Of a stretch of DNA of 64,000 nucleotides, positions 25,223 through 28,500 are shown one piece after another. Each line of letters starts with the position of its first letter. Position 1 is the first letter of the stretch. The DNA lies in NCBI GenBank assembly GCA_963796285.1, contig CAWCKW010000012.1:64001-128000 (forward strand). Reading direction: 5' to 3'. The notes beneath the pieces are model-generated. The model saw nothing but the letters and a program-made list of their open reading frames with translations, was not told the origin of the DNA and made no database searches. The position numbers were made by a program, and so were the translations under genes. The DNA comes from Nitrospirota bacterium (GTDB lineage: Bacteria > Nitrospirota > UBA9217).

Positions 25223-25341
25223 CCAGCATTTTCCGAACTGATAGTTGTTGAAAATTCAGTTGCCCTTCGCTATACTTTCTTTCAGTCCTTCGGGACAGCG
25301 GGAGCAGATCCCGACCTACGTGAGAATTCTTCGAGGTCATC

Positions 25342-26196
25342 GTGAATTTATCCACACTATTTCAAAAAGCACCTGAAATGAGCGCAGAAGCTGTGAAGGA
25401 GCTGATGAAACAGAAAAAGCCGGGCGAGTATAACCTGATCGATGTTCGCCAGCCGGGCGAATACGAGCAGGGACATATCCCGGGCGCGAAGCTCATCCCC
25501 ATTGCAGAACTGGCGTCACGGGTGGGCGAGATCGATCCTGCAAAACCGACCATCCTGTATTGACAAGCGGGTAATCGCAGCCGGGCTGCTGCGGGAATGC
25601 TCAGGAACGCAGGTCTCACGAACATGTTCAGCATGCACGGCGGCATGAAGGCATGGAAGGGGTTCGTCGCAAGCGGTCCGCCCGATGCCGGCATGGCTTA
25701 TTTCCCCTCTGACTCCAGGCCGGAAGAGCTTATCGCCCTGGCGTGGTCGCTGGAAGAAGGTTCGCGCCGCTTCTATGGCGCTCTGGCCGGATCGCTCCAG
25801 GACCAGGAGGCCATGGCGTTTTTTCAGGGATTAGCAGGCGCCGAAGCAGGTCACGAGGCCATGCTGCTTGCCCTGTATCAGGAGGTAACCAATGACCGCC
25901 GTGTTGCAAAGATTCCCGACTCGCTTTTTTCCGGCATTGTTCCCGGCGAGGTGATGGAGGGGGGGATGAGCGTGGAGCAGGCCCTGGAGTGGACCACGGG
26001 CAAAGGCATCAGCGACATCCTCGATCTTTCCATGGCCCTTGAATCGTATTCCTACGACCTGTATCTCAAGATGGAGCGCGCCCTCACCGATGGAAATGCA
26101 CGGCGCGTGTTCCTAGTCCTGGCCGGGGAGGAGGAAAAACATCTGGAAAGAATGGCCGCGCTTATCGAGAACAGACGATCTCCGGATGCACAGTAA
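25342..26196 (+). CDS. probable selenoprotein: rhodanese (Sec at the catalytic position) fused to a ferritin/rubrerythrin-like domain, 284 aa
   Basis: ORFs 25342..25563 and 25597..26196 are in frame across TGA 25561-25563 and read ILY-U-QAGNRSRAAAGML...HGGMKAW; C-terminal ExxH pairs (EAGH, EEKH). Confidence 0.88.
25576..25593 (+). promoter_or_regulatory. SECIS-like hairpin
   Basis: CGCAGC-CGGGCT-GCTGCG starting 12 nt after the in-frame UGA. Confidence 0.65.
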
Positions 26197-26314
26197 TGTA
26201 AGCCCACTCTTTGCCTCATCCCGTTGGATCCGACAAAGCCTTTCCTCTTGACAAAAACCGCCGCACGACTTAATATTAAACACTTGTTTTAAAGCTAAAG
26301 GATCAAATCCATTT

Positions 26315-26734
26315 ATGGAAAAAACACGTTCCTTCCTGTTTTTGTTCAGCTTTCTGCTCCTGTCTTCCACGTCAGTCATGGCGCAATATCCGGTCATCGA
26401 CGCGGAACAACTGCGGTCATATGTAACCGGAAACAAGAAAGTAATGCTTGTAGACTCGAGGACATCCGAGGAATATCAGCAGGCGCACATCCCCGGCGCC
26501 ATCAATATCATGCCGGACGAGATGAAGACCAAGGCCGCACGTTTGCTGAAGGATAAAACAGCTTCGGTCATTTTTTATTGCAGAGGCATGGGCTGAGGAC
26601 TCAGCCGCATGGCCGCAGGTGCGGCCATTGAGATGGGATACACCTCTATCATGATATATCAGGCAGGCATGCCTGATTGGTTATTGAAAGGTTACCCCGT
26701 GCAAAAGGGCAAGAAGCCGGGGAAATTAAAGTAG
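26315..26734 (+). CDS. probable exported selenoprotein rhodanese (CxxxxU), 139 aa
   Basis: Signal peptide, VDSR..EEY..AHIPGA, FYCRGMG-U-GLSRMAAGAAIEMGYTSIMIYQAGMPDWLLKGYPV; the domain is completed only by reading through TGA 26594-26596 to TAG at 26734. Confidence 0.88.
26600..26632 (+). promoter_or_regulatory. SECIS-like hairpin
   Basis: Lower stem CTCA/TGAG; upper stem ATGGCCGC-AGGT-GCGGCCAT starting 12 nt after the UGA. Confidence 0.8.
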
Positions 26735-26766
26735 TATCAGTTCAATTTTCAGGGGAGCGTCGTTCT

Positions 26767-27585
26767 ATGGCCATCAAAAGGGAAAAATCAAATTATACGA
26801 TCCAGTCAGTTTCGCATGCGCTCGACATTCTGGAATCATTCACCAGGACCGAGGACGAACTCGGCGTGACGGAATTGTCGAAGAGGCTGGGACTGCACAA
26901 GAACAACGTGTTCCGGCTGCTTGCCACGCTTGAGCACCGCGGCTACATCGAACAGAACAGCTCGAGCGAGAACTACCGCCTCGGCCCCAAGACACTCCAG
27001 ATCGGGGCGATCTTCATCGACCAGCGCGAGTGCCGCCGGCAGGCGAGGCCGATCCTCGAGAACCTTATGGCGGCATCGGGAGAGACGGCGGTTGTGGCCG
27101 TCCTGCGCGGGAACAAAGTGATCTATATGGACAGCGTGGAGACGTCCAGGACGGTCCGCGCGACCTCGCGCATCGGCGCCATGCACCCTGCACACTGCAC
27201 CGCAGTCGGCAAAGTGCAGCTTGCGGCCCTGCCGGCTGGTGAGATCGAGCGGTTGTACCCGGAAATGAATTTGACACCGCTTACCGACAAGAGCATCAAG
27301 ACACGAGATGTTCTGCTCAATGAACTGAAAAAGATCACTGAGAAAGGGTATGCGTTCGAGACCGAGGAGGCCGATCTTGACGTGCGGAGCATTGCTGTTC
27401 CGGTCAGGGACTTCTCCCGCAAAGTGATCGGCGCAGTAGGTATTGTCGCGCCGTCGCACCGGCTGACGGAAGAGCTGCTGGAAAAGGGCGATCTGCTATC
27501 CTTGGTGCAGGACGCAGGCAAGGCCATCTCAGTGAAGATGGGATTCATCGCACAAGCGCGGGAACAAGTGATACATTGTACCTGA
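26767..27585 (+). CDS. IclR-family transcriptional regulator
   Basis: IQSVSHALDILE, HTH LGVTELSKRLGLHKNNVFRLLATL, HCTAVGK. Confidence 0.93.
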   Translation: MAIKREKSNYTIQSVSHALDILESFTRTEDELGVTELSKRLGLHKNNVFRLLATLEHRGYIEQNSSSENYRLGPKTLQIGAIFIDQRECRRQARPILENLMAASGETAVVAVLRGNKVIYMDSVETSRTVRATSRIGAMHPAHCTAVGKVQLAALPAGEIERLYPEMNLTPLTDKSIKTRDVLLNELKKITEKGYAFETEEADLDVRSIAVPVRDFSRKVIGAVGIVAPSHRLTEELLEKGDLLSLVQDAGKAISVKMGFIAQAREQVIHCT

Positions 27586-27654: not shown

Positions 27655-28500
27655 ATGGTGATTGAACGAAAATGGGAACACCTCAAGACCCTGCTTCATG
27701 AGATGAGACGGGCCGTTCTCGCCTATTCCGGCGGCGTGGACAGCTCGCTTCTGCTCAGGGCCGCATCCGAGGTCATGGGTCCGCGCCTCATCGCGGTTAC
27801 GGCTGTTTCCGAGACCTATCCTGCCGGTGAACTGCAAGCGGCGAAGGACTTTGCCCGATCGCTGGGCGTCACGCACCGCATCCTCCACACGGAAGAACTC
27901 ACCTCGGAATCCTTTGTCCAGAACCCCCCTGACCGCTGCTATTATTGCAAAAAGGAGCTGTTTGACAAGCTGAGGCGGATTGCCGAAGCAGAAGGGATCT
28001 CCGCTGTCATCGAAGGGTCGAACACCGACGACCTGAAGGACCATCGTCCGGGTCGAACGGCTGCGGAGGAATATGCCGTCCGAAGCCCGCTCGTTGAGGC
28101 CGGACTTTCGAAGTCCGAGGTCCGCGAACTCGCACGCAGCCTGCACCTGTCTGTCTGGGACAAACCGTCGCTTGCCTGCCTTTCCTCCCGCATTCCCTAT
28201 GGCACACGGATCACGCCTGCGATCCTCCAGGCCGTTCAGACGGCTGAGGACCACCTGCGCGCTCACGGGTTCCGGCAGGTGCGCGTGCGTCACCACGGAA
28301 ACACCGCGAGGATCGAGGTTGACCGGTCCGACTTTCCGAAGTTGCTTTCGGACGGTGTCGCGGACCAGATCACAGCGGCGCTGAAGGAGATCGGCTATAC
28401 CTACGTCTGCCTGGACCTCGCGGGATACAGGACAGGAAGTATGAATGAGGGAATGAAACTCAGGAGTCAGGTATCGGAAGTCAGGAGTCAGGAGAAATGA
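27655..28500 (+). CDS. larE: ATP-dependent sacrificial sulfur transferase LarE family
   Basis: AYSGGVDS PP-loop, RCYYCK, RPG, ACLSSRIPYG, RVRHHG, GYRTGSMN. Confidence 0.9.
   Translation: MVIERKWEHLKTLLHEMRRAVLAYSGGVDSSLLLRAASEVMGPRLIAVTAVSETYPAGELQAAKDFARSLGVTHRILHTEELTSESFVQNPPDRCYYCKKELFDKLRRIAEAEGISAVIEGSNTDDLKDHRPGRTAAEEYAVRSPLVEAGLSKSEVRELARSLHLSVWDKPSLACLSSRIPYGTRITPAILQAVQTAEDHLRAHGFRQVRVRHHGNTARIEVDRSDFPKLLSDGVADQITAALKEIGYTYVCLDLAGYRTGSMNEGMKLRSQVSEVRSQEK

Follow-up and report, generated by a model that had tools for sequence, protein, structure and literature searches.

A probable selenocysteine rhodanese joined to a ferritin-like di-iron domain, encoded across an in-frame UGA in a Nitrospirota bacterium

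We examined a 64,000-nucleotide stretch of DNA from a Nitrospirota bacterium, the whole of which is called the window below and which corresponds to positions 64001–128000 of contig C12 of its genome (C12:64001-128000). Within it, positions 25342–26196 of the plus strand very probably form one gene for a 284-residue selenoprotein, in which a selenocysteine (Sec) rhodanese is joined to a ferritin-like di-iron domain, as judged from comparisons of sequence. A protein of this kind had been proposed from the letters of the window and a list of its open reading frames (ORFs); we refer to that proposal as the original prediction.

The coding sequence, 284 residues plus the stop, starts with GTG, ends with TAA (26194–26196) and includes one UGA that would be read through. 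Gene by gene it appears as two ORFs, 25342–25563 (GTG start, 73 amino acids) and 25597–26196 (199 amino acids), whose starts lie 255 nt, or 85 codons, apart and which are therefore in phase. Reading of the frame agreed with the original prediction that the two are interrupted only by the TGA at 25561–25563, which is the sole stop codon between 25342 and the TAA. It stands at residue 74, in the local sequence PTILY-U-QAGNRS. The GTG start is consistent with the N-termini of full-length homologues, and a GAGG lies 8–11 nt upstream of it.

The TGA falls inside a recognizable domain. The Pfam rhodanese homology domain (PF00581; residues 15–106, 25384–25659, plus strand) is matched at an E-value of 1.6e-22 and 80.3 bits, against a cut-off of 22.2, and the match spans the TGA. 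The sequence U-Q-A-G-N-R-S corresponds to the rhodanese active-site loop C-x-x-G-x-R-(S/T), with the UGA at the position of the nucleophile, so that the proposed Sec would replace the catalytic Cys of the loop Y-U-Q-A-G-N-R-S. Column 74 is Cys in all 21 aligned full-length database homologues, which confirmed the placement originally given to this codon and the expectation that Cys would align with the UGA.

We then compared the codon across species. A scan of one genome per species, with the linker pattern GPPDAGMAYF among the patterns used in the search, gave 333 stretches encoding a relative, of which the best 80 loci, each from a different species, were retained; they were drawn from Nitrospirota, Thermodesulfobacteriota, Acidobacteriota and others. 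The codon aligned to 25561–25563 is TGA in 64 of the 80 loci, including L026, a relative 90% identical to the window; it is a Cys codon (TGC or TGT) in 15, L031 included, and a Gly codon in one (L088). Together with the window this makes 65 Sec forms, and 14 Cys forms were used in the hairpin and ligand comparisons described below. The frame remains open for 199–214 codons past the TGA in all 65 Sec forms, the median identity to the window being 52% on the upstream side of the TGA and 47% on the downstream side, and residues Y73, G77, R79 and S80 are invariant in all 79 aligned genes. A TGA that is conserved within a frame that is open and conserved on both sides is explained neither by decay to a pseudogene nor by an error of sequencing nor by a pair of unrelated genes.

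The protein databases hold the trace of the same codon. A protein search gave 454 relatives, and the best 120 consist of 65 proteins of at least 246 amino acids with both a rhodanese and a rubrerythrin domain, one rhodanese-only protein (218 amino acids) and 54 pieces of 161–205 amino acids, which span no more than 70% of the query and have the rubrerythrin/ferritin domain alone. In an NCBI record, one such short piece is labelled 'ferritin family protein'. That annotation pipelines would split the gene, as had been foreseen, is thus what those 54 of the best 120 matches illustrate.

Some members lack a Cys or Sec nucleophile: in L088 (3001–3831) the catalytic column is occupied by Gly, the loop of P0385 contains Ser, and P0341 is listed with them. 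In L101, a deltaproteobacterial metagenome-assembled genome, two paralogues at 1083 and 3214 flank a flavoprotein gene, and the upstream copy has TGA where the downstream copy has Cys. Among 151 sampled genomes of the phylum, 13 have a homologue at E ≤ 1e-30, six of them with one TGA and seven without.

Insertion of Sec in bacteria involves an RNA hairpin next to the UGA, the selenocysteine insertion sequence (SECIS), and a GC hairpin starting 12 nt downstream of this UGA had been noted. It exists: the sequence TCGCAGCCGGGCTGCTGCGG at 25575–25594 (plus strand) can form a SECIS-like hairpin of seven pairs, with arms at 25575–25581 and 25588–25594 and a loop at 25582–25587. Its conserved core is the 5 bp formed by 25577–25581 and 25588–25592, 13 nt after the UGA; depending on which pairs are counted, the hairpin begins 11–13 nt past the UGA, the C-G pair flagged earlier being the one at 12 nt. 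This spacing and the G-containing loop would agree with the minimal E. coli SECIS. The selD gene of the same genome has two hairpins downstream of its own UGA at other spacings, 8 and 26 nt, and these give no control for the geometry.

In an ungapped alignment of the 45 nt from the UGA of the 65 Sec forms, columns 17–21 (GCAGC) and 28–32 (GCTGC) are essentially invariant and complementary to each other, and the six-base loop between them reads C-G-K-G-C-N, its third base being G or T in 65 of 65. The core pairs are intact in 64 of the 65 Sec forms versus 2 of the 14 Cys forms (Fisher p = 2e-11, a value that ignores relatedness). Thus, the hairpin is kept in the Sec forms and has decayed in most Cys forms.

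The stem is encoded by the codons Arg-Ser-Arg-Ala-Ala-Ala, and synonymous codon use within it allows a comparison inside the Sec forms themselves. Codon entropy at Arg +5 is 0.11 bits in the Sec forms, compared with 2.27 bits at Arg −14 of the same genes and 1.41 bits at +5 in the Cys forms. Ser +6 gives 0.20 bits in the Sec forms versus 0.75 in the Cys forms. At Ala +9, the Sec forms use GCT in 65 of 65 cases (0.0 bits), while the flanking Ala codons have 1.76 and 1.83 bits and the Cys forms 1.87 at the same site. The synonymous sites of the hairpin are frozen only in the Sec forms, which is evidence for selection on the RNA. The within-Sec comparison is sounder than the association of Sec with the hairpin, because its test and control sites share one phylogeny.

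The genome also possesses the machinery for Sec, which the original prediction had left to be looked for. A tRNA-Sec (64 bits, anticodon TCA) lies at C12:134660-134754, 6.7 kb past the end of the window; selB (369.6 bits, cut-off 242), the only selB above cut-off in the genome, lies at C12:140804-142690, and selA (595 bits, cut-off 268) at C12:143175-144557. A selD with one in-frame TGA is found above its curated cut-off on other contigs, so that selA, selB, selC and selD are all present, each scoring above the curated cut-off; by its sequence, selD is itself a selenoprotein gene in this genome. The selC, selB and selA genes form a cluster at C12:134660-144557, 6.7–16.6 kb beyond the window end. 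Contigs C1 and C8 both have selD, with the same scores, and C9 has it in pieces; with an assembly contamination of 5.04%, the repeated copies suggest duplicated or redundant contigs in the assembly.

The next gene downstream carries the same signature. Starting 118 nt after the end of the window gene, 26315–26734 (plus strand) encodes a rhodanese with a signal peptide and an in-frame TGA at 26594–26596, in the motif FYCRGMG-U-GLS (C-x4-U). When the window was scanned for other TGA-bridged frames, 53 candidates were obtained, mostly spurious, and only that at 26594 stood out. Among 15 aligned full-length homologues the TGA column is occupied by Cys in 14 and by Trp in one (P0126), the Trp codon of P0126 being TGG, one base from TGA. 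Eighty-five of the best 120 database matches are pieces of 86–97 amino acids, the length of the TGA-ended ORF, and the four such pieces that were aligned all end just before the TGA column. In the phylum sample, 15 of 25 genomic matches have TGA. A hairpin of 8 bp with an AGGT loop (26609–26628, plus strand) starts 12 nt after this UGA; it is kept in five of five Sec forms and lost in two of two Cys forms. On this sequence evidence, 26315–26734 is a predicted second Sec-rhodanese gene, and a neighbouring gene with the same signature and the same 12-nt spacing supports the Sec reading of the window gene.

Several results weigh against a Sec-rhodanese specified by this hairpin. The association between Sec and the hairpin is inflated by relatedness: a tree of 79 proteins requires eight changes between Sec and Cys, at least three of them forced by well-supported branches, and a test that takes the phylogeny into account is left with three independent Sec/Cys contrasts on supported branches (eight on all branches), for which a sign test is not significant. 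One sister pair runs opposite to the trend, since L029 (Sec) has one mismatch in the hairpin and L065 (Cys) has kept it; the retention in L065 beside its sister L029 fits a recent switch from Sec to Cys. None of the five pairs shows a compensatory change, and 193 of 500 shuffles attain the observed covariation scores (RNAalifold and pair counting); this lack of covariation arises because the stem is invariant. Folded from the window sequence alone, the hairpin has z = −1.32 (28 of 200 shuffled sequences fold equally well) and z = +0.24 on 71 nt. As the single-sequence fold is unremarkable for the G+C-rich composition, the significance of the hairpin lies in the cross-species comparison only. 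A scan of 25300–26800 with Rfam at E ≤ 10 gave no SECIS or other credible family, a null that is expected because the Rfam SECIS models are family-specific. The distribution of selB does not separate the two forms, as it is above cut-off in four of five TGA-form genomes versus five of five Cys-form genomes, and one TGA-form genome, G111 (96% complete, 220 contigs), has no selA or selB match, though it has a selD with an in-frame TGA. Finally, four other genomes of the same genus were searched at E ≤ 1e-30 and none of them gave the gene, so that its distribution is patchy.

A further point on this side is a second tRNA with the anticodon for UGA. At C12:1201224-1201314 (minus strand) the genome has another Sec-like tRNA, which scores 53.3 bits with the Rfam tRNA-Sec model (gathering score 47) and is called tRNA-SeC, anticodon TCA, by ARAGORN; positions 1497–1591 of L019 were noted alongside it. 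Its acceptor stem of 8–9 bp is followed by U and then CCA, whereas the copy beside selB and selA has a G discriminator. According to a review, selC*-type tRNA-Cys species of Nitrospirae and relatives have a Sec-like fold, U73 and the anticodon GCA or UCA (PMC7609411). The features of the second tRNA are the signature of this type, and there is a possibility that UGA 25561 could also be read as Cys.

The alternative that follows is that the UGA is recoded wholly or partly as Cys, by a selC*-type tRNA-Cys(UCA) that would receive its amino acid from CysRS and that SelB would bring to the UGA and its hairpin, so that a Cys-rhodanese would be made under some conditions, for example under selenium shortage. 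The presence in the same genome of a UCA tRNA with a U discriminator before CCA, of a type described in this very phylum and its relatives, speaks for it. The charging identity of this tRNA is putative, however, and its neighbours are genes for an HflX-like GTPase, a zinc-ribbon protein and PmbA/TldD, with no extra selB or cysS adjoining and no second selB above cut-off elsewhere in the genome. The Sec pathway is complete, and selD has its own in-frame TGA. It would also be hard to explain why TGA and hairpin have been retained over the long term in 64 species if Cys served equally well. We therefore give Cys recoding a small but appreciable chance.

Much less likely is that the gene has been disrupted by a nonsense mutation, or that there are two genes, one for a 73-residue fragment and one for an independent 199-residue ferritin-like protein starting at ATG 25597. 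Gene callers yield exactly this arrangement, as the ferritin-only pieces among the best database matches show. But in 64 of 80 species this codon is likewise TGA, between flanks that are conserved and in frame; a product of 73 residues would be left with half a rhodanese fold and no catalytic loop; the short pieces are called from differing starts, as their lengths of 161–205 residues indicate, and the Met86 column is not conserved; and only in the forms that have TGA are the synonymous sites of the hairpin frozen. Hardly conceivable, finally, is that a TGC or TGT was turned into TGA in sequencing or assembly, or that an altered genetic code makes TGA an ordinary amino-acid codon: a one-base change would suffice for the former and nothing specific favours either, while TGA recurs in L026 and 63 further species, TGA closes 11 of the 32 longest non-overlapping ORFs of the window as an ordinary stop, that of the gene just upstream among them, and the homologues carry Cys at the column rather than Trp or Gly.

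As for reads, assembled contigs of four metagenome runs cover the bin that holds the UGA. None of the 40 variants listed from those contigs, for which there are 212 further rows, falls on 25561–25563, which carries no weight either way. Two contigs from a run of an RNA library span 25542–25680; this is not in itself a sign of transcription or of read-through.

With Sec at residue 74, the protein would consist of two domains and a linker. An AlphaFold2 model built from 22 sequences (mean predicted local distance difference test 87.6, predicted template modelling score 0.84) places residues 9–110 on known rhodanese domains with a root-mean-square deviation (rmsd) of 1.2–1.9 over 95–98 residues, the best matches being 5ve3–5ve5, 3tp9 (a beta-lactamase-fold/rhodanese protein), 3nt6 (Z 16.6, rmsd 1.9, 95 residues aligned) and 3ict. 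The inter-domain linker GPPDAGMAYF (residues 112–121, 25675–25704, plus strand) is conserved in the family as GPPxAGMAYF, G112, G117 and F121 being invariant and P114 nearly so.

The C-terminal part is a ferritin-like, rubrerythrin-type domain with a four-helix bundle (residues 122–282, 25705–26187, plus strand; PF02915 45.3 bits, cut-off 22.8), whose long helices span residues 127–151, 155–183, 223–247 and 251–278 in the model. By fold, residues 116–282 match 2fzf (Z 17.3, 152 residues aligned, 24% identity), mini-bacterioferritin, Dps-like proteins and symerythrin; the fold match of the modelled bundle is on its own weak, as the background Z of helical bundles is high. By sequence, the domain matches 1vjx (TM1526; E 1.6e-10), 2fzf (E 2.9e-9) and symerythrin (E 1.6e-4). 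The ligand set is E138, E168-x-x-H171, E234 and E264-x-x-H267, and it is conserved in the Sec forms, E138 in 64 of 65 and the other five residues in all 65, while position 168 is Lys in 4 of the 14 Cys forms. The ExxH di-iron domain originally suggested thus turned out to be a complete E/ExxH/E/ExxH ferritin-like bundle. No rubredoxin-like FeCys4 domain, no further domain and no CxxC pair was found in the 284 residues, and with no rubredoxin domain we class the domain as erythrin-type and not as a canonical rubrerythrin.

This branch of ferritin-like domains seems to occur with little else. When just the C-terminal domain was used to query the full library, 602 representatives came out at E ≤ 0.001, and the top 150 of these divide into 44 full-length proteins with the Cys loop, 45 that start inside the rhodanese domain, 23 fragments of less than 150 amino acids and 38 others of at least 150, many of the last being full-length forms with variant loops or pieces from the linker onward. 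The 45 that start within the rhodanese domain are taken to be split Sec forms, and the ferritin-like subfamily is thus essentially dedicated to the rhodanese fusion.

Rhodaneses with Sec are not new as such. They have been catalogued since the first surveys of prokaryotic selenoproteomes (PMC1976440, PMC1088965, PMC2398784), and the tables of later reviews distinguish five forms of rhodanese selenoprotein, UxxS, UxxG, CxU, UxxG and UxxxxU (PMC13188914, PMC9312934), so that the statement that Sec-rhodaneses exist is borne out. The second and fourth of these forms, which go under rhodanese-related sulfurtransferase or 'rhodanese-like domain-containing protein' (COG0607/PF00581, UxxG), come closest: in the tables, they too are single rhodanese domains with Sec where the catalytic Cys would stand, and U-Q-A-G fits UxxG (PMC13188914, PMC9312934). 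As here, Cys homologues exist, and the hosts listed are Sec-rich anaerobes such as Deltaproteobacteria. The tables give only PF00581 for the listed UxxG proteins (MBM9537886.1, MCY3690685.1), so these are set apart from ours by table description, and a listed form may already be the protein of the window. The words 'ferritin' and 'rubrerythrin' have no occurrence in the accessible text of the 2026 review (PMC13188914). No paper that brings together rhodanese, selenoprotein and rubrerythrin was found in the literature searched, outside of which the sequence lists behind the review tables lie, and papers retrieved for rhodanese, rubrerythrin and fusion included none on this protein, judging by titles and abstracts. 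The window gene thus extends a known class of selenoproteins and does not found a new one.

Curated families do not capture the protein, and no NCBIfam model reaches its cut-off with it. NF041203 (rhodanese_LYCAU, CxU) describes another Sec-rhodanese, with which the window protein reaches 28.5 bits where 115 are required; NF045694 (TsoB, a rhodanese/DsbD fusion-like protein, UxxxxU) is likewise a Sec-rhodanese fusion, matched at 17.1 bits against a cut-off of 805. The protein is a member of neither, as the position of Sec and the partner domain both differ.

Fusion of a rhodanese to an iron or flavin redox domain has parallels of known structure, namely the persulfide dioxygenase-rhodanese (5ve3–5ve5), the CoA-disulfide reductase-rhodanese (3ict) and the NADH persulfide reductase (3nt6), all of which are among the best structural and sequence matches for residues 9–110. 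These persulfide fusions use Cys and not Sec, however, and their partners are a metallo-beta-lactamase domain with mononuclear iron or a flavoprotein instead of a four-helix di-iron bundle. On the side of the di-iron domain, TM1526 (1vjx), 2fzf from Pyrococcus furiosus and symerythrin (3sid), whose functions are unassigned, share the four-helix bundle with E/ExxH/E/ExxH. The window protein differs from them in that the bundle follows a rhodanese domain, and its lack of a rubredoxin-like FeCys4 domain sets it apart from canonical rubrerythrin.

The gene neighbourhood offers some indications of function. At the window locus, a gene for a GDT1-family transporter lies upstream, and downstream follow the second rhodanese gene, an IclR regulator and a LarE-type PP-loop enzyme; this neighbourhood is common only to L026. 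Across 81 loci, the recurrent neighbour is a Pyr_redox_2 flavoprotein of about 376 amino acids. In 24 loci (21 Sec, 3 Cys) its gene immediately precedes the rhodanese/di-iron gene on the same strand, with a gap of −13 to +30 nt in 13 of those 24. Its best NCBIfam match is TIGR03169 ('Nterm_to_SelD') at 275 bits, below the cut-off of 310 bits; it is therefore a relative of that family and not a member. The TIGR03169-type domain has been reported as an Ndh-like module that occurs in fusion with SelD and whose function is unclear (PMC2398784). The only conserved Cys of the flavoprotein is the one in its GGGDC motif. The upstream flavoprotein together with a protein of the window type would amount to a split version of the arrangement in 3nt6.

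We propose the following scheme, the decoding part of which is taken from the established biology of bacterial Sec, the components being present here. The hairpin at 25575–25594 would recruit SelB with Sec-tRNA(Sec) as the ribosome reads UGA 25561–25563, Sec would be inserted at residue 74, and translation would continue to the TAA at 26194; without Sec-tRNA, translation would stop at the UGA and leave a useless 73-residue fragment. In the finished protein, the Sec selenolate might accept sulfane sulfur or selenium as an Se-S or Se-Se adduct, as the rhodanese Cys does with a persulfide. The di-iron centre might give or remove redox equivalents for this adduct, or guard it against peroxide or O2, and the NDH-2-like flavoprotein encoded upstream in about 30% of the other species might feed electrons from NAD(P)H. 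We regard these functional details as tentative; their known parallels are the rhodanese fusions with persulfide dioxygenase and with the CoA-disulfide and persulfide reductases. Telling against them, the flavoprotein gene is absent at the window locus, and the best TIGR03169 match of the genome reaches 117 bits. A complex prediction for the flavoprotein and the rhodanese/di-iron protein of L041, a Cys form, gave a score of 0.00, which counts neither way.

A more specific idea, to which we assign a low probability, is that the Sec-rhodanese/di-iron protein is an unrecognized acceptor in a module for the reduction and delivery of selenium, or of sulfane sulfur, in which NAD(P)H drives the release of selenide or sulfide. 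The flavoprotein, which has no conserved redox-active pair of Cys residues, would then have the rhodanese Sec as its redox partner; the coupling of the two would be translational in about 30% of species, and the di-iron centre would act as a relay or a guard. If true, this would supply a missing step in the feeding of SelD by anaerobes. Separately, in the genome of the window a Pyr_redox-type gene (C8:17639-18556, 67 bits to TIGR03169) precedes selD (C8:19066-19986) by about 500 nt, which resembles the Ndh-SelD fusions in split form.

The family is widespread in sulfate-reducing and syntrophic anaerobes, and most copies in the loci examined appear to use Sec; for this reason public databases keep them as two pieces without meaning, and no curated model rescues them. 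A selenolate nucleophile hard-wired to a di-iron centre would be an architecture without a characterized example, and the frequent pairing with an 'N-terminal-to-SelD'-type flavoprotein provides a testable link from rhodanese chemistry to the trafficking of selenium and persulfide. The at least three, and up to eight, switches between Sec and Cys also constitute a natural experiment, in which a minimal 5-bp SECIS embedded in Arg-Ser-Arg-Ala-Ala-Ala codons decays after a change from Sec to Cys.

Other features of the locus are as follows. A sigma-70-like promoter match (TTGAAA, 17 nt, TATACT; 25248–25276, plus strand) agrees with the consensus at 10 of 12 positions and lies 66 nt upstream of the start codon of the window gene, a consensus match that does not by itself imply function; a promoter-like site of the second rhodanese gene is at 26248–26276. 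The longest ORF of the IclR-family regulator (26677–27585, plus strand) shares 58 nt with the end of the second rhodanese gene, and its true start is probably later. The LarE-type enzyme, an ATP-dependent sacrificial sulfur transferase, is encoded at 27655–28500 (plus strand; TIGR00268, 331 bits). The best NCBIfam match of the second rhodanese is to the rhodanese part of TsoB, at 70.6 bits and far under the cut-off, and the protein looks like the published UxxS form. A homologue of it from another genus (G123:C58:11978-12364) has two in-frame TGAs and may be a double-Sec form like the UxxxxU of TsoB.

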